From: an uncultured Deinococcales bacterium
GTDB lineage: Bacteria; Deinococcota; Deinococci; Deinococcales; JAAFIG01
Assembly: GCA_964247135.1 (NCBI GenBank)
Contig: CAXTTL010000005.1
Span: 1 to 63,645 of the forward strand
Reading direction: 5' to 3'
DNA: 63,645 nt
The notes under the pieces are model-generated. The model made no database searches. It was given only the letters and a program-made list of their open reading frames with translations, and was not told the DNA's origin. The position numbers and the translations under genes are program-made. Of this stretch, positions 43,393 to 59,548 are shown one piece after another; position 1 is the first letter of the stretch; each line of letters begins with the position of its first letter.

Positions 43393-43809
43393 TTATGACT
43401 CGAGCAACAATGCCCGAAAACCAGCTTGAACGAAATGACCATCCGCTGTTAGTGCTTCGTATAATCCACGTTGTTGCATGACCACAAACGAAATGCAATC
43501 CACCAAACCCCATTCTTTGTCAGAACGTTGCTGAAACAAACCAAAAGCGGCTTGGTAATCTTGCAAATTCAGTTCAATAATTTCAACCAACGGGTCAACC
43601 TCGAGCGCGTTCAACAAAGCAATTGCTGCCTGCCGGTAACGTGCCTTTGATAAAGAATTTCCGATTTCGAGCATCACGGCTCGAGTCACAATCAAACGCG
43701 TTTTGTCGTTGCGAAGTTGTTGCGCCAATGCCAAGGCTCGAGGGTGCAACTGATCCGAAACCACCGCCAGCGAAATGGCGTAAGACGTATCCAAAAACAC
43801 TTCAATCAT
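43393..43809 (-). CDS. vapC: VapC/PIN-domain toxin
   Basis: FLDTS, VDCISFVVM, LTADGHF. Confidence 0.9.
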   Translation of the reverse strand: MIEVFLDTSYAISLAVVSDQLHPRALALAQQLRNDKTRLIVTRAVMLEIGNSLSKARYRQAAIALLNALEVDPLVEIIELNLQDYQAAFGLFQQRSDKEWGLVDCISFVVMQQRGLYEALTADGHFVQAGFRALLLES

Positions 43810-44023
43810 GTTTTAGTTCGGCGTTTAAATAATCGTCTACCCGTATAGACCAATCACTTGGACCCTCAAGTTGAAGTTGTTCGGCAACGTCTAAAAAAGA
43901 AGCGCCAGGTTGATCCGAAGGGGTTTGAATGACAAGTTGTACTTTGGTATTGGCAGCCAATTTAACCGTGCCAACTGGACGAAAAACCTCACCATCAAAG
44001 GTCGCTTCGAGAACCTGAGTCAT
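43802..44023 (-). CDS. Antitoxin (AF2212/DUF104-like)
   Basis: EATFDGEVFRP, GPSDWS; overlaps the toxin start. Confidence 0.8.
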   Translation of the reverse strand: MTQVLEATFDGEVFRPVGTVKLAANTKVQLVIQTPSDQPGASFLDVAEQLQLEGPSDWSIRVDDYLNAELKHD

Positions 44024-44772: not shown

Positions 44773-45480
44773 TTAAGCGTGACCGCTGACCAGCCGCGCA
44801 ATCAAAAACGCAAAACCTGCCGCCAAGCCGCCGACCAAAGCGGTTTGCAATGCACCGCGCCAGATCGAGACGCCCGTGAATCTGGCTTTGACCGCCCCAA
44901 AAATCAGCAGCGCGATCAGGGTCACGATCACCGAATACAACAGCGCCTGTTCGACCCGAATCGGAAACACATACGGCGAAAGCGGAATCAACCCGCCAAA
45001 AATATACGAGCCGCCAATGGTTAAGGCGCTGGTCAGGGCGCGTTTTGGGTCGGGTTGCTCGAGTCCGAGTTCTTGGCGCATCATGAAATCCACCCATTTG
45101 TCCTGGTTGTTGGTGACGGCTTTGACCGCCCCCTCGAGCGTATCGCCGCTTAAACCGTAACCCGCAAAAATCTCGCGGATTTCCTCACGTTCTTTTTCGG
45201 GAACTTCTTTGACTTCCTGGACTTCGCGCCTGCGTTCGGACAGGTAATGCTCGAATTCGCTTCTGGCTGCCAGGAAACCACCCAGACCCATCGCAATGCT
45301 GCCCGCCGCCATTTCTGCCACGCCTGCCACCAGCACCAAATTGGTCTGCGCCACCGCGCCCGATAAACCTGCCGCCAGCGCGAACGGTACGGTCAAACCG
45401 TCGCTCATGCCGATCACGATGTCGCCAACAGTTTCTGATCCGGTGAAGTGTTGCTCGAGATGCCGCGTGGTTGGAATCAT
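44773..45480 (-). CDS. VIT1/CCC1 Fe/Mn transporter
   Basis: DIVIGMSDGL, AEMAAGSIAMGLGG, FMMRQELGL. Confidence 0.92.
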   Translation of the reverse strand: MIPTTRHLEQHFTGSETVGDIVIGMSDGLTVPFALAAGLSGAVAQTNLVLVAGVAEMAAGSIAMGLGGFLAARSEFEHYLSERRREVQEVKEVPEKEREEIREIFAGYGLSGDTLEGAVKAVTNNQDKWVDFMMRQELGLEQPDPKRALTSALTIGGSYIFGGLIPLSPYVFPIRVEQALLYSVIVTLIALLIFGAVKARFTGVSIWRGALQTALVGGLAAGFAFLIARLVSGHA

Positions 45481-45996
45481 GTTGAACCCCTTTCAAAATG
45501 TTGATGCGAGATGTCTGGCATCTCCTGTAACGCCCTTTAAACCCGAGGATTTCAAAGACACGAGAATGTGGGCACAACATTTTAGCTTTAAATGGCTGAA
45601 GACATTTACTTTGAATCGGTCAAAAAATGCGATTTTCCTTGATTGGAAAGGCAAAGTGAGAAATGACCAGCGTGACGGACAAGGGCTTGTAACATAATGA
45701 GTGAAGTCAAAAACGAGCCAAGGAAATTGTTGCTCAATGAGAACCAACCTGTCAGTTGCATATCACATCTCTAATTTTCCCATTCAGATTCGGTTCAGGT
45801 TTATATGAGATTGTAACTCTGTTCGCAAAGCAGTTATGGGTTTTGCGAATTCATTCAAGACCGTACTGCTTGCGGTTGCAACTGATCTTCTTGGGGGATA
45901 TCAGCCAGCGCCCAGCACCAAAAAAGGCTTCAAGTGCAAACACTTGAACCGGTTCGCCTATTGCCCAAAATCTGCACGTACCAAGAAACGGACAAA

Positions 45997-47502
45997 ATGA
46001 AATACTTTTTCTTGACATTGATCTTTGTTCTTTCAAGCGGTTTTTGCCGAACACTTGCGCAAACCATCGGCGCACCAACCCTCGGAGAACCCAACTGGGC
46101 GAGCGATCACCTCGAGTTGCCCGTTTACTTTGCCGGCACCGGAGATTTGAGTCTTGCCCTCAGCGATGCGACCTGTCCGGTGCAATTGAGCGCCAAAACC
46201 ATCACCTTGCCTGTGGCGACCGTGATTTTTATTGCGCCCAAAGGACGTTCGGGTTGCTTGTTCAATTTAAATGCCCAGAACGATCAGGGTGACGATGCCA
46301 AATGGAAACTCGAGGTCAGCGCGACGGGCGACACGGGTTTTAGCGTGGTGGTGAACGCCGTCGGCACGCGTGACCCGAGCGCCACGCCAGCCTACGACGG
46401 CAAGGCTTCGGTCGATGTTCACGGCGGTTGGGGCGCGTTGCGGGTGGACGGCACGGTTCGTCTGGACACCACACTTGTTCCCGACGGCAATTTGTTGTTG
46501 CAATACCAAGATTCCAGATTGCAACTCGCCGACGATTCTGGCGCTCGAGATCACCCCGCCGGCGATGTCGGGCGCGGTCTGTATTTTTCGCAAGGGCTGG
46601 GTTTACCGATAGGTCAGTTTAGCCTTGGCGTGGCATTGCCGTTCGGACAGACCGTGCGGGTTGGTGCGGGTTGGCGCGGCGAATACGCCTGTGGGCAAAT
46701 CAGCAGCGACCTCAATTTTAGCGACCCGATCTTTGCCGTTCAGGCGGGCGCATCGGGCGCCCGAGGCAGCCTCAGTTACCGACCCGGCGCAGGAGAAAAA
46801 TGGGGTTTCGGACTCGAGTACCGTAACGCCGACTGGTATTTTAACGCGACCGCCACCGAGGCTCGAGGCTCGGCTAACGTGCGAGGTTTTAGCCTTCTTG
46901 ACGGGCTTGGCTGGGTGCTCGTGAAAGCCAGCGCGGGCTTTGACGGTACGAACTTTACGACCAAAGGACAAGCCGACAGCGAAAATTTTGGCATCCAGTG
47001 GGACTACAACGCCAGCAACCCCAACGTGTACCTCGAGGGTCGGCTTTTTGACCTGGGATTCCTGACCGAATTGCGTTTTGGTACGAGCATCACCTACTCG
47101 AGCACCCCAGGTTACGTGCGGGTCGAAGCGATTTACAACCCCGATGGAGCGCTCGAGATTGCCCTTGGCACCAGCATCAACACCGCCACCATCATCGGCG
47201 TGACTGGACATGTCAGTTACAGCCTGCCACTCGAGGGACGCTTGAGTTTTGGTTTGGGTTTTGACATTCCCGACGTGACCTACCGCAGCAATTACGCCCT
47301 CACGGGCAAGCTCAGTTACGGCACGGGCGGCTTTTTGGTCGCGCTCGAGGTCAATGCCCTGATTTTTAATCCCAGCCAATTCAAAGCCACACTCAGCATC
47401 TCGCAATGGTCATTTATTGGTGTCAACCCACCGACGCCAACCGTGCGATTTGTCGATGCAGGTTACACAGCCCCCATCACCTTCAGTTCCCCTTGCAATT
47501 AG
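45997..47502 (+). CDS. Secreted hypothetical protein, possible outer-membrane beta-barrel
   Basis: Signal peptide; Gly/aromatic-rich alternating beta-strand pattern. Confidence 0.6.
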   Translation: MKYFFLTLIFVLSSGFCRTLAQTIGAPTLGEPNWASDHLELPVYFAGTGDLSLALSDATCPVQLSAKTITLPVATVIFIAPKGRSGCLFNLNAQNDQGDDAKWKLEVSATGDTGFSVVVNAVGTRDPSATPAYDGKASVDVHGGWGALRVDGTVRLDTTLVPDGNLLLQYQDSRLQLADDSGARDHPAGDVGRGLYFSQGLGLPIGQFSLGVALPFGQTVRVGAGWRGEYACGQISSDLNFSDPIFAVQAGASGARGSLSYRPGAGEKWGFGLEYRNADWYFNATATEARGSANVRGFSLLDGLGWVLVKASAGFDGTNFTTKGQADSENFGIQWDYNASNPNVYLEGRLFDLGFLTELRFGTSITYSSTPGYVRVEAIYNPDGALEIALGTSINTATIIGVTGHVSYSLPLEGRLSFGLGFDIPDVTYRSNYALTGKLSYGTGGFLVALEVNALIFNPSQFKATLSISQWSFIGVNPPTPTVRFVDAGYTAPITFSSPCN

Positions 47503-47555
47503 GTACAGGCGTTCGTTCGCAAACTCAAGACTCAAACTCGAGAAGGAGAATCACC

Positions 47556-48092
47556 ATGAAAAAGACAGTCTTTTTGGCAGTATCCCTGATGGTTGGCGTT
47601 GTGTTGGCAGCCCCCGCAGAATTCACCCCAACGGGTGTCATCACCTACGAAGCCGCCGGTCCGATTGGCAAATGGAAAGGCACGAACAAAGCCTTTTCTG
47701 GCAAGTTAACCTATGACCGCGATTCGAGCAAGATTGCTGGCAGCATCTGTGTTGCCACCAAAGCCTGGAACAGTGGCGAGGGCATCCGCGACGGTCACAC
47801 CCGCGACATGTTCGAGGTTGAAAAATTCCCAACCGCCTGCTTTGCGCCCGAATCACTCGAGGGTGATGTCAAAGCCGGAAAAGTCACAATTCTCGGTAAG
47901 TTGACCATGCACGGCGTGACCCAAGAGATTAAATTGATTGGCAGCGCCAAAGACGACGGCGCAAAAGTTTCGTTTACAGGTGCAATTACCCTCAAAGTCA
48001 CCGATTACAAAATGAACCGCCCGAGCATTCTGGGCTTTACCGTTGCCGATGAAGTGCCAGTCACGATCAGTGCCGAAGCCAGCACCAAATAA
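47556..48092 (+). CDS. YceI-family protein
   Basis: RDGH...FEVEKFP, GKLTMHGVT; signal peptide; AAGGAG RBS. Confidence 0.88.
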   Translation: MKKTVFLAVSLMVGVVLAAPAEFTPTGVITYEAAGPIGKWKGTNKAFSGKLTYDRDSSKIAGSICVATKAWNSGEGIRDGHTRDMFEVEKFPTACFAPESLEGDVKAGKVTILGKLTMHGVTQEIKLIGSAKDDGAKVSFTGAITLKVTDYKMNRPSILGFTVADEVPVTISAEASTK

Positions 48093-48118
48093 ACCTCGCG
48101 GAAGCCAGCACCAAATAA
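48075..48118 (+). repeat. 18-bp direct repeat of the yceI 3' end
   Basis: GAAGCCAGCACCAAATAA at 48075 and 48101. Confidence 0.85.
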
Positions 48119-48151
48119 TCCCACCATCTCGAGCCACCCTTTAGGAACCCC

Positions 48152-48955
48152 ATGACCCCAGTTCGTTTCCTGACCATTCTGTTTTTCGCCTTGCTGTTCG
48201 GCGCTTTTGCCGCAGGCTCGAAGTCCTTGGCGTGGGTGCTGTTCGATCCGACCACCAGCAGCTACCGTCTTTCCAACGGCAACACCTTTACCAACAACGA
48301 CAACCTCGAGCCTGGACAATTTGTCGAAATCACGGGAAGCGTGGTCAAAAGCCTCGAGCAGTGGCGTTCACCGAGCGACATTGAAAAGCGTTACAACACC
48401 AGCTTCGGACGGGTCAATTTCAGTCACGAACGACACTTTGGCGCTCTGGGCGGCAAGAACTGCATCGCCTGTCACGCCGACGAAAAAGGGCTGGCAAAAG
48501 GCGAACCCATCGAAAGCAAAGCCCCGAGCGCCGACCTCGAGCCTCACGCGGCGACCTCGACGGGACGGTTTTGTTCTGGGTGTCACAACGGCAGCACCAA
48601 AGCCGCCGATGCCGCAGGCGGGCAACCAAAATTGAACGTCACGATTTATTCCGCATTCGGCAACAAAAACAGTGCCAGTTGCAACCAATGCCACGTGCCA
48701 GCCAGCCACGGCGCGGATTTCACCAGCAATCACCCCGACCTGGTCAGCGCCGCAGGTGTTGGCACGTGTACCACCTGTCACCGTGGTGGTACAGAAATCA
48801 CGCTTCAAGCCCTTGGGCAAGCCAAGACCTTCGTTCATGCGCAACAAAAACTGGCAAAAGACCCGACTGACACCAGCGCTTTTGCGGCACGACTGCCCAA
48901 CCAATTTTGTTCGTACTGTCACGCCAACCAAAGCAATTTTTTCAGCATCAAATAA
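48152..48955 (+). CDS. Pentaheme c-type cytochrome (c3/c7-like)
   Basis: CIACH, CSGCH, CNQCH, CTTCH, CSYCH; FSHERH; signal peptide. Confidence 0.88.
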   Translation: MTPVRFLTILFFALLFGAFAAGSKSLAWVLFDPTTSSYRLSNGNTFTNNDNLEPGQFVEITGSVVKSLEQWRSPSDIEKRYNTSFGRVNFSHERHFGALGGKNCIACHADEKGLAKGEPIESKAPSADLEPHAATSTGRFCSGCHNGSTKAADAAGGQPKLNVTIYSAFGNKNSASCNQCHVPASHGADFTSNHPDLVSAAGVGTCTTCHRGGTEITLQALGQAKTFVHAQQKLAKDPTDTSAFAARLPNQFCSYCHANQSNFFSIK

Positions 48956-49036
48956 AAAAACCGCTCGAGATCAGCTCGAGGTCAAAAAGACCCGCAACAC
49001 CGCTTGAGCGGCAAGAATTTTTACCGGAGGAAATGT

Positions 49037-51253
49037 ATGCAAGCAACCGTAAAAAAAGCGAAAAACCCCTTCGAGCGCATCAGCCGACGTTCTGTCCTTG
49101 GGGTCATGGGCGTGGGCATGACTGGTATATTGATCGGCTGTAACGACGATTTATCACCATTGAGCGCCACGCTCACCTCCGACATGACCGATTTGACCGC
49201 TACGGGTTCGATCACCTTGACCGCAAAATTGGACGTGGGCTATGCCAACAGCGTCGAGTTTTACGACGGCGCGACGCTGCTTGACACCGTGCCTTTACTG
49301 TTGGGGCAAGCAACAAAACAAATCACCTTGGATGCAAGCAAAAACGGCAAGCACACCTTCATCACCAAAATCACCAGCAGCACGGGCAAACAAGCCTACA
49401 GCAATCCAGTGGACGTGATGGTCAACATTGGGGTGACCCCACCACCCGTCGCACCGACTATTTCACTCTCAGCCTCGAGCGGCTCGGTAACCACCAATAC
49501 CGGCATCACCTTAACCGCCACGGCGGCAGCCACAACGGGTAAAATCACCAAAGTCGAATTTTTTGAAGGCATAACCTCTCTTGGTTCTTCTGCCATCGCG
49601 CCTTACACCTTGGTGGTGCCAGCCTTCACCACAACCAACAATGGCACCCATACTTACACGGCAAAAGTCACGACCGATGCCAGCAGCCTCAATACTGCCA
49701 TCTCGAGCGCTGTGGATGTTGTCGTCAACATTCCAGCCCCACTGCCAACAATCACGTTGGCGGCTTCTTCAAGCACCGTCACGGCGGCTGGCAATCTTAC
49801 GTTAACTGCAACCGTCGCAGGTGGCACAGTCACACAAGTCGAATTCTTTGACGGCGCAACCTCGCTTGGTCTGGGTGTGCTTGCAGGCGCTTCATATACA
49901 AAAACTGTTGCTTTCACGGCAACTTCACCAGCCTTATCACACAGTTACACCGCCAAAGGCACTGTCGCGGGCGTTGCAGCCACCGTTGATAGCGCTGCTG
50001 TAAACGTCAACGTCAACATTGGCAATAAAGCACCAACCATCACCTTGGGAAGCTCGAGTCTTTCGGTAACAGCCAATGGTTCAATAACCTTAACTGCCGT
50101 GCCAACGGCTAACATCGGTACAATTGCCAAAGTCGAATTTTTTGACTCTGCCAGCCCAACCCCGACCGTTGCCGTCAGTACCGTCACGGCTGCCCCCTGG
50201 CAATTTACACCAAGCTTTAGTGCTGCCAACAACGGAGTGCACAATTACACCGCCAAAGCCACAGACTCGAGCAACAACAGCGCGACCAGCACCCCAGCCA
50301 TTGCGGTGACGGTGAACATTCCAACCGCAGCCCCAACCATTACGTTAACCACCACCTCGAGCGCCACGATTACGGCGGCTGGAAATATTGCTCTCAATGC
50401 AGTGCCAACAGTTGACCCAAATGTGACGATCACAAAAGTCGAATTGTTCGATGGCACGACATCATTAGGTTTGCTGACGGCACCTTCTTACGGCAAAACC
50501 ATTCCAGTGACATCTGCTGACAATAGGTTGCACGCTTACACGGCTGTGGTCACAGACTCGAGTGGCAAAACCGCCACCAGCACTGCGGTGAACATTGCCG
50601 TCAATATTGCAGTCGTAGTCACGAACCCTACTGTTACACTGACCGCCACACCCACTACGCTCAGTGCGGCTGGCACAGTCGCATTGTCGGCAACTGTCAC
50701 AAAGGGCAGTGGTACGATCACCAAAGTTGAATTTTATGATGGTACAACTTTACTTGGTTCTAGCTTGAGCACGGTATCACCCTATGCGTTTACAACACCT
50801 GCCTATACCAGTGCCAATAACGGATCAAAAAGCTACACCGCCAAAATTACTGCCAGCGACGGTGGCACAGTCACCAGTGCAGTTGTGAGTGTGACAATTA
50901 ATATAGCGACTGTTACGGGTACTAAAGTTGCGAGCGTCACTGATTTTCCAAGCGTAGGTTCAAGTATCACAACTACCCTTGGTGGTTCTCACGCTCGAGG
51001 TTCAATCATTTATCGCTCTGGAACTTTGTTAACCGGTGGAATTACCATCAATGGCATGTTTTTCATTGCTTATGATCGTGCTTGTACACACAATTTTTGT
51101 GCTGTTCCAATACCTCTTGCTACCTCACATGTGAGTACATGCCCATGCCACGGTGCAACATTTAATTTTGAAACCAAAGCTGCTGGTGGTCAAGCAATCG
51201 GAATGTTACCCATTCAAGTTATTAAACCAAGCGGTACAGATATTTACATTTAA
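49037..51253 (+). CDS. Tat lipoprotein with 6 Ig-like repeats and a C-terminal Rieske [2Fe-2S] domain
   Basis: SRRSVL..LIGC; six VEF/VELF-type repeats; CTHNFC..CPCHG; GGAGG RBS. Confidence 0.85.
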   Translation: MQATVKKAKNPFERISRRSVLGVMGVGMTGILIGCNDDLSPLSATLTSDMTDLTATGSITLTAKLDVGYANSVEFYDGATLLDTVPLLLGQATKQITLDASKNGKHTFITKITSSTGKQAYSNPVDVMVNIGVTPPPVAPTISLSASSGSVTTNTGITLTATAAATTGKITKVEFFEGITSLGSSAIAPYTLVVPAFTTTNNGTHTYTAKVTTDASSLNTAISSAVDVVVNIPAPLPTITLAASSSTVTAAGNLTLTATVAGGTVTQVEFFDGATSLGLGVLAGASYTKTVAFTATSPALSHSYTAKGTVAGVAATVDSAAVNVNVNIGNKAPTITLGSSSLSVTANGSITLTAVPTANIGTIAKVEFFDSASPTPTVAVSTVTAAPWQFTPSFSAANNGVHNYTAKATDSSNNSATSTPAIAVTVNIPTAAPTITLTTTSSATITAAGNIALNAVPTVDPNVTITKVELFDGTTSLGLLTAPSYGKTIPVTSADNRLHAYTAVVTDSSGKTATSTAVNIAVNIAVVVTNPTVTLTATPTTLSAAGTVALSATVTKGSGTITKVEFYDGTTLLGSSLSTVSPYAFTTPAYTSANNGSKSYTAKITASDGGTVTSAVVSVTINIATVTGTKVASVTDFPSVGSSITTTLGGSHARGSIIYRSGTLLTGGITINGMFFIAYDRACTHNFCAVPIPLATSHVSTCPCHGATFNFETKAAGGQAIGMLPIQVIKPSGTDIYI

Positions 51254-51262
51254 TTCTGTTTC

Positions 51263-51292
51263 TGAGGGACAAGAATTAATTCTTGTCCCTCA
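51263..51292 (+). terminator. Perfect 30-bp palindrome, probable terminator
   Basis: TGAGGGACAAGAATT/AATTCTTGTCCCTCA just after the stop codon. Confidence 0.7.
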
Positions 51293-51667
51293 AAATCTTT
51301 TGATGCTTGAGTTTTAAGTACAGAATTTTATTCTTTTTTTGTATTTTATACTTCACATAGTTAAAGTAATCTCATTTTAAATTCAGCTAAACCACATGAT
51401 GTCATCAACCCACGTTTCTCTCGAGCATTACAACTGAGCCAAACGTGATTGCATGAAAAACGTTCAAAGGAGGTAGCGGTATCTGAGAGCGGCGCGGGAA
51501 GCCCGACAGCAAACCCCGCGACACCCCCAAGCACCCCAGGTCATGAGGCGTTCCTTGATTCTGTCACGGCTTTGAAAGTAACACTGTGCATTTTCGGTGC
51601 TGCCCAACAGCCAACAATTCAAAACCCTCAAAATTCAGAACTCTCAAGCAGTATTTTGGAGGTTTTT

Positions 51668-53377
51668 ATGATTCAAGACATCAACAGGCGCGTGGTTTTG
51701 CAAACCCTAGGACTTGGCAGCGCCACACTTTTGGTCGGTTGTAACATTGCCACACCGGACATTGTAGACAACACCGTTGCCGCCCTTTCAACCCAGAACC
51801 TGACCACCACCTGCCCTGGAAACATCACCCTGACCGTCAAAGTCAAAACGGGCACAACCAGCGCCGAACAACAAAAATACGCGGTCTTGAAGATCGAGTT
51901 TTACCGTGGCGCAGTCTTGCTCGGTACGATCACCACCGCACCTTACACGCTCAAAATAGACATCACACCGCAAAACCTGCCACAGTTTGAGGACGACGGC
52001 AAACCCGAACACGAAGACGAGAATGGCTTTTACGCCAAGGTCTATTACAAGAGCGGCAAAGTCCAAACCACCGACCGAATTCGCGTGATTGTCGACAAAA
52101 CCTGCACCCCAGGCAGCACCGACACCACACCACCAACCATCAGCTTGGCAAGCTCGAGCGCCAGTGTGATTGCCGACGGCAAAATCACCCTGACCGCCAC
52201 CGCCGCCGACGAAACAGGCGGGTCTGGACTCGCCAAAGTCGATTTCCTCGAGGGCGCAACCGTTTTGGGCAGCGCCACAGCCGCACCGTTTACCTTTGAC
52301 ATTGCCTTTACCGCCACCAACAACGGCACGCACAATTATATTGCCAAAGCCTACGACAAAGCCGGCAATTTCGCGCTCAGCACCCCGTCGGTCAGCGTGG
52401 TGGTGAATATTCCAGGGACACCGCCAACCGACACCACCGCGCCAACCGTGACGCTTTCAAGCTCGAGTTTGAACGTGATCGCCGCAGGTTCGATTACCCT
52501 GACCGCAGGGGCGACCGACAATGCGGGCGGCAGTGGGGTCAAACAAATTGAATTGTTCGACGGCACAACTTCGCTAGGGGTTAAAACCGCTGCACCCTTC
52601 ACCTGGACGCAAAACCTCGCCATCGCCAACAATGGCACGAAAGTCTACACCGCCAAAGCCACCGACAACGCGGGCAATGTTGGCACAAGCCCCACCGTCA
52701 GCGTGGTGGTGAACATTCCCACGCCGGACACCACCGCGCCCACCACGACCCTTGCTGCCTCGAGTTTGAATGTCACGGCTGCGGGTTCGATCACGATGAC
52801 CGCCACCGCCACCGATAACGCGGGGGGTAGCGGCGTGAAACAAGTCGAATTGTTTGACAATGGTGTTGCGGTCGGTACTGCCAAGCTGATTGCGCCCTAT
52901 GTTTGGACGATTGCCTTCACCAGCGCAGACAACAAAACCCATGTCTACACTGCCAAAGCCACCGACAACGCGGGCAATGTTGGAGCGCTCAGCGCGGCTG
53001 TGAATGTCGTGGTGAACATTGCGGTCGCACCGACCGGCACAAAAGTTGCCAGCGTCAGCGATTTCCCAAGTGTCGGCTCTGTTGTCTTGGCGACCGTGGG
53101 CGGCTCGCACAGCAACGGTTCGGTGATCTACCGCTCGGGAACGCTTTTGGCGGGTGGCATCACCATCAACGGCATGTTCTTTATTGCCTATGACCGTTCT
53201 TGCACCCACGAGTTTTGTGATGCCTTCGGCGGCGCTGCCATCACCGCAGCACACGTCGTCACCTGCCCTTGTCACAAAGCAACGTTCAACCTCGAGACAA
53301 AAGTAGCCACCAGCCCTGCCGTTGGAATGCTGCCACTTCAAGCCATCACGGCGTTCGGAACGGACATTTACATTTAA
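51668..53377 (+). CDS. Tat lipoprotein with 4 Ig-like repeats and a C-terminal Rieske [2Fe-2S] domain (paralog)
   Basis: NRRVVL..LVGC; four repeats; CTHEFC..CPCHK; GGAGG RBS before ATG 51668. Confidence 0.85.
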   Translation: MIQDINRRVVLQTLGLGSATLLVGCNIATPDIVDNTVAALSTQNLTTTCPGNITLTVKVKTGTTSAEQQKYAVLKIEFYRGAVLLGTITTAPYTLKIDITPQNLPQFEDDGKPEHEDENGFYAKVYYKSGKVQTTDRIRVIVDKTCTPGSTDTTPPTISLASSSASVIADGKITLTATAADETGGSGLAKVDFLEGATVLGSATAAPFTFDIAFTATNNGTHNYIAKAYDKAGNFALSTPSVSVVVNIPGTPPTDTTAPTVTLSSSSLNVIAAGSITLTAGATDNAGGSGVKQIELFDGTTSLGVKTAAPFTWTQNLAIANNGTKVYTAKATDNAGNVGTSPTVSVVVNIPTPDTTAPTTTLAASSLNVTAAGSITMTATATDNAGGSGVKQVELFDNGVAVGTAKLIAPYVWTIAFTSADNKTHVYTAKATDNAGNVGALSAAVNVVVNIAVAPTGTKVASVSDFPSVGSVVLATVGGSHSNGSVIYRSGTLLAGGITINGMFFIAYDRSCTHEFCDAFGGAAITAAHVVTCPCHKATFNLETKVATSPAVGMLPLQAITAFGTDIYI

Positions 53378-53384
53378 CCAGCAA

Positions 53385-53427
53385 AGGGTTGCTCGAGCGC
53401 GTATACTCGAGCAACCCTGTTTTATTT
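53385..53427 (+). terminator. Hairpin/terminator with CTCGAG in both arms
   Basis: AGGGTTGCTCGAG-N8-CTCGAGCAACCCT then GTTTTATTT. Confidence 0.65.
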
Positions 53428-53443
53428 CTCAAGGAGGTCTTCA

Positions 53444-53620
53444 ATGGGTGCACCAGAAATTTTAGGATTGATCGTGTTGGCAATCGTGCTGTTTGGCGCG
53501 AGTCGTTTACCGCAAATTGGCAAGAACTTGGGGCAGGGCATCAAGCAATTTAAAACGGGCATGTTTGAAGCCAAAGAGGAACTCTCGAGTGCCATTCAAG
53601 ACGATCCCTCAAAGCCTTAA
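53444..53620 (+). CDS. tatA: Twin-arginine translocase TatA/E (58 aa, below the ORF-track cutoff)
   Basis: MGAPEILGLIVLAIVLFGASRLPQIGKNLGQGIKQFK; AAGGAGG RBS. Confidence 0.92.
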   Translation: MGAPEILGLIVLAIVLFGASRLPQIGKNLGQGIKQFKTGMFEAKEELSSAIQDDPSKP

Positions 53621-53623
53621 ACC

Positions 53624-54691
53624 GTGTTCAAAACGTTTCTCGATGTGCTCTGGAAATCGAGCAGCCTCGCGCCGCAATTTACGCCCTCGCGCTGCTTGCT
53701 CGAGCATCATGTGGTCGGAGGTTGCGACAAGTGCTTGACGGCTTGCCCACATGAAGCCATCGAGATTAAAAACAACAGCGTCAAGCTTCTGGAGCACAAC
53801 TGCACAGGGTGCGGATTTTGCGTTCAAGAATGCCCGACCAAAGCGCTTGAGTACGACCTGAAACCGATCCTGAATTTGCTGAAAAATCAGGGCGTCGGCA
53901 CAAATCAAGACCCCGTTCAAGCCACGCTGAAATGCTCTAAAGTTTCAGGCTCGAGCGAAACCATTTTGTGCATGGGACAACTGACGCCCGCGCATTTGAT
54001 TGCCTCTGCCGCCTGGAATCAAAACCTCGAGTTGGTGCATGGTGATTGTAAAAACTGCGAGATTGGTGACAACACTGCGGTTAGGCGTTTGCAAAAAGTG
54101 CGAATCCAAGCCGAAGAATTGGTTCCAGCCAAGGGCGATGAACCGCAGGTCACATTCATTTCCTGGCTCGACAGTAGCGATTGGCTGGGTTCAGACCGTC
54201 CCAAACGACTCGAACTTGCGCCAGAACCCACACGGGTTTCGAGGCGTGACGCGCTGCAATCCCTGTTCTCGAGCGCCAAACGCGGCGTGGCAGAAATTAT
54301 TCCTGACAACCCACTGCCTGGTGTGACCGCCAAACTCGAGCCGAGCCGCATTCCAGAAGAATGGGTGTGGCGCAAACGCGCATTGCTGCGCCTGACCAAA
54401 AATTCGCAGGTCATGCGTTGGAAAACGCCAACCGTCAACGACCATTGCACCCTCTGCCAGGTCTGCGAATTTGTCTGTCCGACCAAAGCCATCACACGTT
54501 CCGAGAATATTTTGGAACTCGAAGTGTCCGCCTGTATTGGCTGTGATGCCTGTACGGTTTCATGCCCAGAAAACGCGATTCAACTGCAAAGTGAGATTCC
54601 CAGGGCACAACTCGAGCAAACCTTGGTGTTGTTCGCAAAACCACAAACAGATTTACTGTCCTCGGGCACCAATTTTCTCGAGCAAAACTGA
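53624..54691 (+). CDS. Polyferredoxin (several 4Fe-4S clusters)
   Basis: CDKCLTACP, CTGCGFCVQECP, CTLCQVCEFVCP, CIGCDACTVSCP. Confidence 0.88.
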   Translation: MFKTFLDVLWKSSSLAPQFTPSRCLLEHHVVGGCDKCLTACPHEAIEIKNNSVKLLEHNCTGCGFCVQECPTKALEYDLKPILNLLKNQGVGTNQDPVQATLKCSKVSGSSETILCMGQLTPAHLIASAAWNQNLELVHGDCKNCEIGDNTAVRRLQKVRIQAEELVPAKGDEPQVTFISWLDSSDWLGSDRPKRLELAPEPTRVSRRDALQSLFSSAKRGVAEIIPDNPLPGVTAKLEPSRIPEEWVWRKRALLRLTKNSQVMRWKTPTVNDHCTLCQVCEFVCPTKAITRSENILELEVSACIGCDACTVSCPENAIQLQSEIPRAQLEQTLVLFAKPQTDLLSSGTNFLEQN

Positions 54692-55264: not shown

Positions 55265-55348
55265 GGCTACAGTCTACGGTGCTTCTCGAGCAATAATTTG
55301 AGGTTGAACCCAGATTAGGAATGTTACGTATCTTGACTCGAGGTGAGC

Positions 55349-55918
55349 ATGAAAACTGGAATCTTGATCGTGGCAGGTGCGGCATTGGCGACTTTGGGTG
55401 TGACACTGGCACTGAACAACTCGAGCAATAAGCCGAGCGTGACACTCGAGCAAAGTAAGAAGCTCGCGCCCGATTTTATTCTTGGCGGGCAGTGGCTTAA
55501 TTCCAAACCGCTTTCAATCAAAGACCTGCGCGGCAAAGTCGTGATCGTCAATATTTGGGTGCATTCGTGCATCAACTGTCACAACAGTTTGCCGACCTTG
55601 CGCGACTGGTACAAAAAATACAAAGACCAGGGACTCGAGATTGTCGGCGTGCATACGCCAGAATTTGAATCCGACAAAGACCTGGCGCAAACCGCCGCCA
55701 GTTTAAAAGAAGACGGCGTGACCTGGGCGGTCATGCAAGACAACGACGAAGCCACCTGGAAGGCGTACCACAACCAATTCTGGCCAGCCTTTTACATCAT
55801 TGACCGCAACGGCTTTATTCGCAGCACCCATGCGGGAGAAATCTCGAGCCGTTACCCGAACGCGATCCCTGGTTTGGAAGCCGAGATTCAAAAATTGCTA
55901 TCAGAAAAAGCGCAGTAA
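55349..55918 (+). CDS. Exported thioredoxin-like redoxin (DipZ C-terminal type)
   Basis: WLNS, CINC, GVHTPEF, WPAFYIID. Confidence 0.88.
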   Translation: MKTGILIVAGAALATLGVTLALNNSSNKPSVTLEQSKKLAPDFILGGQWLNSKPLSIKDLRGKVVIVNIWVHSCINCHNSLPTLRDWYKKYKDQGLEIVGVHTPEFESDKDLAQTAASLKEDGVTWAVMQDNDEATWKAYHNQFWPAFYIIDRNGFIRSTHAGEISSRYPNAIPGLEAEIQKLLSEKAQ

Positions 55919-55938
55919 TCTTCGAGTATGCTGAAACG

Positions 55939-56424
55939 GTGAACATGTTCTGGAAAACAATCATCACGATTTTCTGTTTGAGCCTCGGGATGGCATTTGC
56001 CCTCTCGAGCAGCAATGCCGGCATTGTTTATGCCAAACCAAACACGGTGGCGACCATCAAACTCGAGGTGCAAAACGCCAAGAACGTGCTGTTCAACCGC
56101 AAAGGCACGACCACGTTCAGCCTGAGCAATCCTTTTGGCAAAGCGGTGACCTTGGGTTTGCCAAACGGCGTCAAAGATGCCGTTGATCCTGAAGTCTATT
56201 ACTCGAGCCTCAAATCGCTCGAGTTTAAAATCAACGTTCCCAAGACCGCCAAAATCGGAATTTACCCGCTCAAGCTCGAGGTCGATTTTTACCTGTGCGA
56301 CACCAACGTTCGGGTCTGTTACAAAGAAACCGCGCTGGCAAAAGCCGAGCTTCGGGTTGGGCAAGCTGGCAAAAACATGCCCATCGTCATGAAGCTCGAG
56401 CGTGGTGGGTTGCAGATTCGTTGA
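55939..56424 (+). CDS. Secreted hypothetical protein, DsbD N-terminal-like
   Basis: Signal peptide; YLCDTNVRVCY cysteine pair. Confidence 0.6.
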   Translation: MNMFWKTIITIFCLSLGMAFALSSSNAGIVYAKPNTVATIKLEVQNAKNVLFNRKGTTTFSLSNPFGKAVTLGLPNGVKDAVDPEVYYSSLKSLEFKINVPKTAKIGIYPLKLEVDFYLCDTNVRVCYKETALAKAELRVGQAGKNMPIVMKLERGGLQIR

Positions 56425-57514: not shown

Positions 57515-58855
57515 TCATGGTTTGTCAATGCTTGACTCGAGCCTGCCAAACTCGAGGCGCACCGTTGTTCCGACCGAAGGTTGACTGGTGATTTGCACAT
57601 TTCCCTGGTGTGCCTCGACGACCGCTTTGACCACCGCCAAGCCGAGTCCAGAACCCTCAAATCTCGAGTTTCCACGGTGAAAAGCTTCAAACACCAGCTC
57701 GAGTTCGCTGCCGTTCATGCCGATACCCGTGTCGGTCACGGACAAAATCACTTTTTGATCTCCAGCTTCGACCAGCACCCGCACCTCGCCAGCGTTGGTA
57801 AATTTCAGGGCGTTGCCGAGAATATTTTCAAGCGCCCGCTCGAGCATCAAGCGATCACCCATCAGTTTTGCGGCTGTTCCGTCAATGCTCAACTCGAGGT
57901 TTTTGCTGGCAGCGAGCGGCATCAGACGGTCGGTGACCTCGGAGGCAAGATCAGTCAAATCGAGCGCTTGCAATTGCAAATCGCGTTCGGTTTGCGAGAG
58001 TGTCAGGAGGTTATTGATCAGCCGCCGCAAGTGTTGGGCGTTGCGCCAAAAACGCTCGAGCACCGTTTGATTTTCCGTCTCGCTGCGCGGTCTGGCGCGG
58101 TGGGTTTCCAGATCGGCAAGCAACGCCGTGACAGGCGTGCGAAGCTCATGGGCGGCATCGGCAACAAAACGGTTTTGCCGCAGCCTGGAGGCTTGCAGTT
58201 CAGTCAAACTTCCTTCCAAGGCTCGAGCCAAAATGCCGATCTCGTCGGACAAACCAATCCCCGGAATGACTTCACCAGACTCGAGGTTTTCGACGCGGTG
58301 CGCCAGTTTCTCGAGCGGTTGTACGGTTCTGGCAACCACAAAAGCGATCAACAAACCCGCCAACACCGTCGCCACAAGGCTGACCACCGCCACGATGCTG
58401 ACGTACCGTTCCATGTTGCGCGTCATGATCGAAAGTGGTCGCCCCGCCTGAACCGCAAAATCGCCGGAGCGCAAACTGACAATTCGCCAATCGTTGACAT
58501 TGCTGTAGCGAACACTTTGGCTGTTCTGAAAGAACATCGAATCGAGCGGTTCGTTTGGCGCATCATATTTACCCGCACCAGATTCCAATTTTCCTTGAAA
58601 GTACAAAAAAGCAGTGGTCGAACCCGTGGCGGTCACCAAAGCATTTTCCAGATCGACTGAGATTTGAACTGGTTTTCCAAGTTTGGCTTCGTCTTTGGCG
58701 TCATCCAGAATTTGCTGGGCTTGAACCCCCAGCTCTTCGTCCAGATCACGAATCAGGCTGCGCTGCAAGAACACGCCCGTAATGACCGACAAGCCAACCA
58801 ACGCCAGCAAGGTGATGAAGCTCGAGAGCAGCGCCAGTCGAATGCGCAGGCTCAT
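57515..58855 (-). CDS. HAMP sensor histidine kinase
   Basis: DAAHELRTP, NILGNALKF, DTGIG, GSGLGL. Confidence 0.92.
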   Translation of the reverse strand: MSLRIRLALLSSFITLLALVGLSVITGVFLQRSLIRDLDEELGVQAQQILDDAKDEAKLGKPVQISVDLENALVTATGSTTAFLYFQGKLESGAGKYDAPNEPLDSMFFQNSQSVRYSNVNDWRIVSLRSGDFAVQAGRPLSIMTRNMERYVSIVAVVSLVATVLAGLLIAFVVARTVQPLEKLAHRVENLESGEVIPGIGLSDEIGILARALEGSLTELQASRLRQNRFVADAAHELRTPVTALLADLETHRARPRSETENQTVLERFWRNAQHLRRLINNLLTLSQTERDLQLQALDLTDLASEVTDRLMPLAASKNLELSIDGTAAKLMGDRLMLERALENILGNALKFTNAGEVRVLVEAGDQKVILSVTDTGIGMNGSELELVFEAFHRGNSRFEGSGLGLAVVKAVVEAHQGNVQITSQPSVGTTVRLEFGRLESSIDKP

Positions 58856-58882
58856 GACGTGCCTTTGAAATCATTTGCCATG

Positions 58883-59548
58883 TCAGACCTTGGGGAATCT
58901 GTAGCCCATGCCGACCACGGTCTCGACCACCCAAGCCCCAAGTTTGCGCCGCAAGTTTTTGACGTAAACATCGACCACGTTGGTTTCGGCTTCAAATTCC
59001 GATCCCCAGACCCGATCCGCGATCTCTTCACGCGAAAAAACCCGTCCTGGGTTGGACGCCAGCACCTCGAGAATGCCAAATTCTTTGGCGGTCAAATGCA
59101 CGGTTTGCCCCGCTTTGGTCACCAAATGCGACTGCCAATCGAGCTTGAAATCCTGATACTCGAGCACTTTGGCGACACTCGGTCTGGCGCGGCGCAACAA
59201 CGCCCGCAAACGCGCGTGCAACTCGTCAAGCTCGAAGGGTTTGACCAGATAATCGTCGCCCCCCGCATCCAAACCAGCCACACGGTCTGCCAAACTGTCG
59301 CGGGCGGTCAAGAACAAGACCGGACTGGCAAGACCCGCCTCGCGCAAGCTGGCGACCAATTCAAAACCCGCGTTGCCGCCTTCGGGCAGGCGCACATCCA
59401 TGATCAGCGCATCAAACTCGTAATTCTCGAGCAAGCCCTTTGCTTCGGAGGCGTTGGCTGCCTCGTCAACCGCGTAATTGTGCTCTCTTAAGCTCTGCGC
59501 CAAACTTTGGCGAATCGTGGTGTCGTCTTCGGTAATCAGTACGCGCAT
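58883..59548 (-). CDS. OmpR-family response regulator
   Basis: EDD, MDVRLP, LTARD, DDYLVKPF, NVVDVYVKNLRRKL. Confidence 0.94.
   Translation of the reverse strand: MRVLITEDDTTIRQSLAQSLREHNYAVDEAANASEAKGLLENYEFDALIMDVRLPEGGNAGFELVASLREAGLASPVLFLTARDSLADRVAGLDAGGDDYLVKPFELDELHARLRALLRRARPSVAKVLEYQDFKLDWQSHLVTKAGQTVHLTAKEFGILEVLASNPGRVFSREEIADRVWGSEFEAETNVVDVYVKNLRRKLGAWVVETVVGMGYRFPKV

Follow-up and report, generated by a model that had tools for sequence, protein, structure and literature searches.

The 63,645-nucleotide contig analyzed here in full (the window; contig C5 of G000, the 5.09-Mb draft genome of an uncultured Deinococcales bacterium in 386 contigs, 84% complete) contains a cluster of seven genes at 45997-54691. 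Two of them encode lipoproteins in which a Rieske domain is held at the end of a stalk of immunoglobulin-like (Ig) repeats. The core of this cluster consists of a predicted outer-membrane barrel, a YceI-family lipocalin, a pentahaem c-type cytochrome and at least one spaced Rieske lipoprotein, because all four parts co-occur in the six genomes that bear the barrel. What is new is the stalked architecture, its fixed partnership with the barrel, the lipocalin and the cytochrome, and the interchangeability of the spacers, whereas the parts themselves are known from PetC3-type lipoproteins, BcnA-LcoA pairs, porin-cytochrome clusters and usher barrels. An earlier, sequence-only reading of this DNA had not recognised the architecture from any characterised system. 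That view stands for the stalked form and for the cluster as a whole: full-text searches, which leave most subscription journals outside their coverage, turned up no published account of Ig- or proline-stalked Rieske lipoproteins and no published barrel-YceI-pentahaem cluster. It does not stand for PetC3-type lipoproteins and YceI-cytochrome pairs, which have already been described. We tentatively propose that the cluster encodes an accessory, stress-regulated extracytoplasmic electron relay that serves the outer envelope and keeps a lipocalin-bound quinone or a metal ion in a harmless redox state.

All seven genes lie on the plus strand, with a divergent VIT1 gene upstream, where the sequence-only reading had placed them, and their open reading frames (ORFs) and motifs were confirmed. 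The first encodes a secreted beta protein of 501 amino acids (aa) with an N-terminal beta-sandwich and a predicted outer-membrane barrel of approximately 24-26 strands (45997..47502). It is followed by a periplasmic YceI-family lipocalin with a Sec signal (47556..48092; PF04264, E 8.8e-23), a secreted c-type cytochrome of 267 aa with a signal peptide and five CxxCH motifs (48152..48955), the stalked Rieske lipoproteins IgR1 (49037..51253, 738 aa) and IgR2 (51668..53377, 569 aa), an extra TatA paralogue (53444..53620) and a cytoplasmic polyferredoxin (53624..54691, 355 aa).

The distribution of the cluster was determined in a collection of 364 species genomes of the phylum, all but one belonging to a single order, and loci were compared by tblastn of the window proteins on the corresponding regions of relatives. 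The counts given here refer to related rather than independent genomes, several of which are incomplete. A profile of the barrel detects full-length relatives in exactly six of the 364 genomes (G000, G004, G008, G011, G197 and G193), which fall into two families; the cluster core thus recurs outside the window. Of 40 relatives, four gave matches covering the Ig repeats as well as the Rieske end: G004, G008, G011 and, in a fragment at a contig end, G001. The same-genus genome G004 possesses VIT1, barrel, YceI, cytochrome, IgR1, IgR2 and TatA genes, followed by genes for a 703-aa protein and a Uma2 protein instead of the polyferredoxin. This 703-aa protein (L012:5371-8023) is secreted and lipoprotein-like with a single haem motif, CSECH, and is a local replacement within one genus. 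In G001, also of the same genus, an IgR gene and TatA are followed directly by a PduO gene. G011, which represents another genus, carries on one closed contig the barrel (33% identity), YceI (56%), the cytochrome (51%), one six-repeat IgR, TatA and the polyferredoxin (47%). In G008, from a third genus, two contigs hold a proline-linker Rieske lipoprotein, barrel, YceI, cytochrome, IgR, TatA, polyferredoxin and 2-oxoacid:ferredoxin oxidoreductase genes. In a different family, G197 encodes a tandem-Rieske lipoprotein, barrel (27%), YceI (44%), cytochrome (46%) and a three-repeat IgR, with neither TatA nor polyferredoxin, and G193, of the same genus as G197, has the tandem-Rieske lipoprotein, barrel, YceI and cytochrome and no Ig protein. 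The spread is that of a patchy, accessory trait (3 of the 18 other genomes of the bacterium's own family, 2 of 68 in the second family). TatA and the polyferredoxin, which the sequence-only reading had included in the system, prove to be optional parts, present at five and three of the seven loci, respectively.

Both stalked lipoproteins possess a twin-arginine translocation (Tat) signal with a lipobox, a series of Ig-like repeats and a C-terminal Rieske domain of 116 residues, in agreement with the initial description. IgR1 likely begins at the ATG at 49037, the earlier-read position 49004 being an upstream TTG, and the ATG of IgR2 at 51668 has a GGAGG ahead of it. The signals read RRSVL...LIGC in IgR1 and RRVVL...LVGC in IgR2, and the Rieske boxes CTHNFC..CPCH and CTHEFC..CPCH. 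A hidden Markov model built from the proteins' own repeats, seeded by a phmmer step (E 2.5e-7 to 3.7e-62), detects six repeats in IgR1 and four in IgR2, each at E <= 1e-31, and Pfam assigns them to Big_7. The first repeat of IgR2 is divergent and carries a pair of cysteines; in IgR1 the only cysteines are that of the lipobox and the four in the Rieske boxes. Against the Rieske model PF00355 (gathering cut-off 20.3 bits), IgR2 scores 28.3 bits and IgR1 either 18.7 bits (hmmscan, below the cut-off) or 22.6 bits (genome scan, above it), and the match covers the cluster-binding half of the model only (positions 36-83). When 11 heads are aligned, none of the four ligands, C59, H61, C80 and H83, varies. 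An AlphaFold2 (AF2) model of the IgR2 head is highly confident (predicted local distance difference test score (pLDDT) 95.5, predicted template modelling score 0.88), and the listed Foldseek matches are all Rieske proteins, the best being AioB (template modelling (TM) score 0.73 when normalised to the query, root-mean-square deviation (rmsd) 2.9 A) and PetC3 (TM 0.75). These same proteins are the closest solved chains by sequence (PetC3 5CXM, E 1e-7; AioB, E 1.3e-7).

The stalked Rieske proteins form a genuine family that is both small and variable. When the IgR2 head was run against 5.8 billion proteins in a word-indexed search confined to sequences of similar length, five were returned, two of them the window's own. 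The 116-residue head, compared exhaustively by HMMER with 1.84 billion cluster representatives, gave 34 proteins at E <= 1e-3. Eleven of these 34 are at least 400 aa long; ten consist of Big_7 repeats and a C-terminal Rieske domain, and the eleventh is a DoxD/DoxX-Rieske fusion (domain calls from a Pfam scan of 17 of the 34 matches and, for P0004, from precomputed domains). Such members were tabulated with the genomic orthologues and the additional Rieske lipoproteins, 23 proteins in all. A search of genome and metagenome contigs with an alignment of the heads confirmed no related locus. The ligand motif CxH...CxxH is kept in 23 of 23, which bears out the Rieske identity together with the confidently predicted fold of the head, and an RR motif with a lipobox was found by scan in 18. 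The remaining five comprise three fragments that lack the N-terminus, the tandem-Rieske protein of G197, which was matched from a second RR upstream of its likely start, and the proline-linker protein of G008, in which the scan took the longest ORF and missed a signal, SRREAM...LSAC, that is readable by eye. The number of Ig repeats ranges from 3 to 8 among Ig-bearing members, and other members have as spacer a proline-rich linker of approximately 90 residues (G008) or tandem Rieske domains (G197 and G193). The original suggestion of redox heads held at differing distances is therefore supported by this variation in spacer length and type.

The sequence-only reading had assigned both heads to the high-potential bc-type on the basis of the extra, disulfide-forming cysteines in CTHxxC..CPCH. 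These cysteines are indeed present in both window proteins, but the class assignment does not survive comparison with relatives, since only 9 of the 23 family members have them and 14 do not. Both G004 orthologues read CTHAGT..CQDH, and the cysteines are also missing in G011, G197 and all extra Rieske lipoproteins. Furthermore, the residues that form hydrogen bonds by the cluster are Ala and Phe rather than Ser and Tyr. An Ala two residues past the last ligand is invariant in the family, and a Phe stands four residues past it in the window proteins (CPCHGATF and CPCHKATF), as in PetC3 5CXM (CPCHGAEF); some relatives keep Tyr at that position (HGATYN). Ser-to-Ala and Tyr-to-Phe replacements are reported to remove hydrogen bonds and to accompany low midpoint potentials: PetC3 has +135 mV and the C. 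tepidum protein +160 mV, versus about +300 mV in bc1/b6f (PMC10172866). Because the disulfide cysteines are not conserved and the hydrogen-bond positions hold Ala and Phe, the heads are better described as PetC3-like than as high-potential bc-type, and we predict from their residues a low-to-middle potential.

The likeness to PetC3 (5CXM) goes beyond these two hydrogen-bond positions. Although the sequence relation is distant, both are exported Rieske proteins anchored by a lipidated N-terminal Cys, with no cytochrome b encoded alongside. PetC3, however, has only one small domain and a short tether, whereas anchor and head are separated by four Ig domains in IgR2 and six in IgR1, whose genes belong to a fixed cluster that also encodes the barrel, YceI and the pentahaem cytochrome. 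PetC3 has been described as related to cell envelope homeostasis (PMC12341915). With bc1/b6f Rieske proteins and AioB, the window copies share a Tat-exported Rieske fold, the CxH..CxxH ligands and the disulfide cysteines. They differ from the bc1/b6f proteins in that no cytochrome b gene is adjacent, as had been noted from the outset (the PF00033 matches of the genome sit on contigs C326 and C37), in that the anchor is a lipid and not a helix, and in that NF050121, NF010001 and NF045928 give 19-21 bits versus cut-offs of 154-275. A bc complex was dropped as a candidate, the partner subunits being absent, as was arsenite oxidase AioAB, no molybdopterin AioA being encoded in the window cluster or at the related loci.

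An improbable alternative would cast the Rieske lipoproteins, together with the pentahaem cytochrome, as tethered carriers in an ordinary respiratory chain, replacing soluble cytochrome c with a membrane-anchored form comparable to cytochrome c_y and linking a periplasmic dehydrogenase or a bc complex to an oxidase across a very wide periplasm, the barrel and YceI being only loosely related to them. The abundance of such proteins would fit this explanation, as 13 Rieske matches, three of them small Tat-Rieske genes in tandem, are found in the source genome, and relatives of the head at E <= 1e-8 occur in 154 of the 364 genomes; so would the closeness of the heads to AioB, which passes electrons to a soluble cytochrome c (8ed4). 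The stalked form, however, always accompanies barrel, YceI and cytochrome genes, none of the seven loci has a dehydrogenase or oxidase gene adjoining the cluster, and a rare and patchy spread (6 of 364) is unlike that of core respiration. The three tandem genes (contig C278, L020:1375-3150) encode Tat-signal proteins of 175, 175 and 206 aa with the boxes CTHxGC..CPCH and adjoin a response regulator gene; one of the three proteins has a proline-rich linker. G011 has one such small Rieske gene (L016:2782-3318), with an orthologous regulator (68% identity) and a kinase, at a distance of approximately 7 kb from the cluster of that genome. The lineage thus seems to make wide use of free periplasmic Rieske proteins.

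We regard the pentahaem cytochrome and the YceI lipocalin as the likely partners of the Rieske heads, judging from gene order, in which the two are inseparable at the nine loci read: YceI lies directly upstream of the cytochrome in all nine. The five CxxCH motifs and five further His residues are invariant in six of six cytochrome orthologues. The cytochrome matches PF22113, which models domain II/IV of MtrC/MtrF, at 42.6 bits (cut-off 30) and PF14522 (cytochrome c7) at E 1.1e-10, and comparison with solved structures by sequence gave nothing below E 0.027. A profile of the cytochrome detects full-length relatives in 33 of the 364 genomes, namely the six barrel genomes and 27 barrel-less ones in two other genus groups. 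In G217 (L025:4906-10682), G021 (L026:5338-11381) and G033 (L027:1457-7541) the pair is part of a module that encodes a DUF5666-repeat lipoprotein, YceI, the pentahaem cytochrome, a response regulator, a kinase and a final secreted protein that is either charged and of low complexity or rich in His and Met. The trio of regulator, kinase and charged protein also adjoins the G197 cluster, and the G021 module lies between two copper P-type ATPase genes (TIGR01511, 601 bits with a cut-off of 397, and a CopA match).

A parallel to this pair is the BcnA-LcoA system. According to PMC9113575, the YceI-family protein BcnA is genetically linked to a cytochrome b561 and shields the envelope from lipid peroxyl radicals, a BcnA homologue binds ubiquinone-8, and in the proposed model the cytochrome re-reduces the lipocalin-bound quinone, which quenches periplasmic radicals. 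The likeness lies in a secreted YceI lipocalin conserved beside a cytochrome gene and in a similar, stress-linked context. The cluster described here adds Rieske lipoproteins and an outer-membrane barrel, and no aldehyde reductase partner was seen.

The beta protein has a Sec-type signal and matches no Pfam (E <= 0.01) or NCBIfam family. The sequence-only reading had called it a putative barrel, and structure prediction supports this, yielding a large outer-membrane barrel. The AF2 model (12-sequence alignment, pLDDT 78.7) consists of a beta-sandwich at residues 28-108 and approximately 26 hairpin-connected strands over residues 113-486, and its top Foldseek matches, at E ~1e-6 and low TM score, are all outer-membrane barrels. 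A full structural aligner places FimD (Z 16.9) and PapC (Z 16.0) on top, over 319 residues at rmsd 5.4-5.6, with porins next and then MtrB (Z 14.4, 334 residues, rmsd 8.6), all within 2.5 Z units of the top. The modelled fold is thus nearest to the ushers and not specifically MtrB-like. A protein-atlas search with the barrel gave no usable match.

Ushers pass Ig-fold subunits, and the cluster encodes Ig-repeat proteins. It is conceivable, but very unlikely, that the system is not a redox system at all and that the Ig-repeat proteins are surface fibres or adhesins exported or displayed by the usher-like barrel, with the Rieske domain as a cap or sensor and the cytochrome and YceI as a separate unit. 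Besides the structural matches to pilus ushers, this explanation draws on hairpins that set IgR1 and IgR2 apart from their neighbours and on the homology of the barrel profile to the middle of a 929-aa outer-membrane protein of G040 (hhalign probability 97.6, E 3.8e-12, 289 columns), which is encoded among small secreted beta proteins. The barrel differs from FimD and PapC, however, in that it comprises only 501 aa without a plug, usher N- or C-terminal domains or a Pfam Usher (PF00577) match, and no chaperone or pilin gene is found in the cluster. Moreover, G193 keeps the barrel, YceI, cytochrome and tandem-Rieske lipoprotein without any Ig protein, so the barrel does not depend on Ig cargo, and the Rieske ligands, unchanged in all 23 members, favour a functional iron-sulfur cluster. 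Outer-membrane proteins of 929-1070 aa whose middle part is homologous to the barrel, and which have no Pfam family, are encoded in G040 (L022:1338-6507) and G291 (L023:3876-9560), where they adjoin small secreted beta proteins with similar C-terminal motifs; these loci may represent an undescribed usher-like fibre system in Deinococcus-like genomes.

The barrel and the cytochrome also invite comparison with the porin-cytochrome conduits. The Mtr and Geobacter Pcc clusters combine a barrel, a multihaem cytochrome and a redox lipoprotein. The cluster in the window mirrors that layout, and its large barrel, secreted multihaem cytochrome and redox lipoprotein are encoded together as in MtrCAB, PioAB/MtoAB and the Geobacter Pcc system. 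The barrel could sheathe or dock the pentahaem cytochrome, with the stalked Rieske proteins as a periplasmic or surface-exposed relay, and pass electrons to or from extracellular Fe(II), Mn(II) or Fe(III) or electrodes, in line with the metal oxidation or extracellular electron transfer that the sequence-only reading had named as examples. We consider such a conduit possible, although rather unlikely. The approximately 26 predicted strands, the alignment to MtrB over 334 residues, the match of the cytochrome to the MtrC/MtrF pentahaem domain model at a score above the cut-off, and iron-handling neighbours in two lineages all speak for it. On the other hand, the barrel has no MtrB_PioB Pfam match and is fitted better by ushers, which align with higher Z and lower rmsd. 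The cytochrome has five CxxCH motifs versus ten haems, with no decahaem MtrA-type cytochrome, no further cytochromes and no inner-membrane quinol dehydrogenase of the CymA/NapC type encoded in the cluster, and the lipoprotein carries a [2Fe-2S] center on an Ig stalk instead of haems. Additionally, the YceI-cytochrome module is barrel-less in 27 of 33 genomes, and a dedicated stress-type two-component system would be more typical of defence islands. The neighbouring genes suit a defence of the envelope against metals or oxidative stress at least as well as metal oxidation or extracellular electron transfer.

The length of the stalks bears on where the lipoproteins might be anchored. An Ig domain is approximately 4 nm long, which would give stalks of ~16 nm for four domains and ~24 nm for six. 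Cryo-tomography of D. radiodurans gives a periplasm of 121 nm, a gap of 30 nm between outer membrane and cell wall, and a gap of 18 nm between outer membrane and S-layer (PMC9388160). If the envelope is built as in D. radiodurans, the stalks are too short to span two membranes and fit the outer gaps, which favours an outer-membrane anchor next to the barrel; spacers on the scale of the 18-nm and 30-nm gaps are also compatible with the conduit considered above. In place of Ig repeats, G008 also uses a polyproline rod, and G197 and G193 use tandem heads, which implies that the reach of the head matters, and not the Ig fold. Carried further, these dimensions allow for a trans-envelope wire, in which a usher-derived barrel would have the Ig or polyproline stalk passed through it or docked beneath it, so that the [2Fe-2S] center is placed at a set distance matched to the outer gaps of the Deinococcota; together with the cytochrome and quinone-loaded YceI, this would be a quinol-oxidising relay that needs no cytochrome b. 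We judge this elaboration clearly unlikely.

It is from the genes, domains, conservation, predicted folds and neighbours that we infer where the lipoproteins are anchored, how and in which direction electrons would pass, and what the system might do for the cell. Under the proposed protective relay, the oldest core would be the YceI lipocalin, a type of protein whose characterised relatives carry isoprenoid quinones, and the secreted pentahaem cytochrome, to which the barrel and one to three Rieske lipoproteins would have been added later in the lineage. Rieske proteins are known to acquire their cluster before export, in the cytoplasm, and to be translocated in a folded state, and given the Tat signals of the lipoproteins, the heads would likewise receive their cluster in the cytoplasm and leave folded, with the extra TatA helping. 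The spacer, whether 3-8 Ig repeats, a proline-rich rod or a second Rieske domain, would keep the head off the anchoring membrane. At or near the outer-membrane barrel, the heads could then exchange single electrons with the pentahaem cytochrome and with a quinone held by YceI, so that a quinone or metal ion in the outer envelope would be held in a harmless redox state.

The purpose that we consider most likely for such a relay is envelope protection against redox-active metals (Cu, Fe) and lipid radicals, under the control of a metal- or envelope-stress two-component system; energy-conserving respiration is a less likely purpose. This view leans on the neighbourhood of the cluster. A two-component system lies directly beside the cluster in G011, G008 and G197, divergently in the first two, and 3 kb from it in the window, where a response regulator (PF00072 and PF00486) and a sensor kinase of the heavy-metal-sensor type are encoded at 57515..59548 on the minus strand. 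For the kinases of the window, G011 and G008, the top subfamily is TIGR01386 (window, E 1.4e-53, 182.5 bits with a cut-off of 292.55; G011, E 5.2e-55; G008, E 2.7e-61). In G011 a secreted Dps-like ferritin gene follows the polyferredoxin, VIT1 stands by the cluster in the window and G004, copper ATPases flank the G021 module, and the window has a TlpA-like thioredoxin. These neighbours differ by lineage, yet all of them concern envelope metals or redox stress.

Several observations weigh against the protective reading. The neighbours on which it leans vary by locus, with VIT1, Dps and the copper ATPases each confined to one lineage. The TIGR01386 matches of the kinases are all below the curated cut-off, and orthology is confined to the pair from G011 and G008 (55% identity), with the G197 and window kinases falling outside it. 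The parallel with BcnA-LcoA is one of role and not of family, the cytochrome here being a secreted c-type pentahaem protein and not a membrane b561. A barrel of 24-26 strands with a multihaem cytochrome is also what a respiratory porin-cytochrome conduit would need, and the cluster encodes no inner-membrane source or sink of electrons. The idea that one heavy-metal kinase regulates all loci was dropped, since orthology is limited to G011 and G008.

The cluster TatA scores 47.6 bits against PF02416 (cut-off 21) and 52.0 bits against TIGR01411, just under the cut-off of 53.9, and it is an extra copy, since the genome has two other TatA/B/E genes, both with higher scores. The polyferredoxin contains two 2x[4Fe-4S] modules (residues 33-76 and 257-323) and an internal SRRDAL motif, and a protein-atlas search with it returned generic 4Fe-4S clusters only, with Deinococcota as the phylum most often named for relatives. 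A second polyferredoxin, 44% identical, is encoded on contig C291, and a copy with 42-44% identity is present in all five same-genus genomes. This housekeeping paralogue lies 2.2 kb after tatA in G004 (C157:37566-40892) and 2.4 kb after tatC in G005 (L019:3169-7377), in the order tatA, tatC, DAHP synthase, polyferredoxin. NapF has been proposed to help mature Tat cargo, and by analogy a role of the polyferredoxin in maturing Tat cargo is a lead, drawn from these two tat neighbourhoods. In G008, genes for the alpha/gamma and beta parts of a 2-oxoacid:ferredoxin oxidoreductase follow the polyferredoxin on the same strand (L013:4931-7635), where it may serve cytoplasmic metabolism.

Although co-oriented, the seven genes may not form one operon and could be expressed as two or three transcripts, because terminator-like hairpins with 13-bp stems follow IgR1 (51263..51292) and IgR2 (53385..53418; 8 G-C pairs and a T-rich tail) and an AT-rich gap of 414 bp lies ahead of IgR2. 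Both hairpins are consensus matches only, and terminator-like sites in the region are not more frequent than in shuffled sequence (18 versus 15.2 +/- 3.5). Upstream of the first gene, the last ~220 bp (45780..45996) are nearly unchanged in G004, and the more distal spacer does not align. This conserved region holds a perfect palindrome with 8-bp arms, TTCAAGTG-CAAA-CACTTGAA (~45929-45948), which was also flagged in a hairpin scan, and a TTCAG..TTCAG direct repeat, both of them candidate operator sites. A search of sequencing runs listed no RNA data set and found only small shares (0.07-0.11) in 5 runs from 3 studies.

The remaining genes near the cluster are context rather than core. The divergent VIT1-family Fe/Mn transporter gene (44773..45480, minus strand; PF01988, E 4.5e-71) keeps its place beside the cluster in no other genome than G004, of the same genus. 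Upstream of VIT1, on the minus strand at 43393-44023, overlapping ORFs of 138 and 73 aa have the look of a PIN toxin and its antitoxin. Downstream of the polyferredoxin, 55343..56424 on the plus strand encodes a TlpA/ResA-like periplasmic thioredoxin (NF002854, E 6.2e-22, below the cut-off) and then a small secreted protein of 161 aa with a C-x6-C motif, which we take to resemble the N-terminal domain of DsbD; the two may form a periplasmic thiol-reducing pair. This pair is kept in G004 and G001 and not in G011.

To our knowledge, Rieske centers are known almost only from bc-type complexes, oxygenases and arsenite oxidase. The cluster defines a small family in which a PetC3-like head is combined with spacers of very different length and chemistry, with fixed partners and, at the loci read, with an adjacent conserved regulator, and it offers a handle on the roles of both free Rieske lipoproteins such as PetC3 and YceI lipocalins. 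If the trans-envelope wire were true, it would add a new class of electron conduit, extracellular or in the outer envelope, and give stalked Rieske proteins their first assigned role. Genetics may be possible, since two genomes that are 99% complete, G193 and G197 (the latter in 3 contigs), look as if they came from cultivable strains. The cluster is thus a testable system for what YceI-cytochrome pairs do and for how bacteria with a periplasm of ~100 nm bring redox chemistry to their outer layers.

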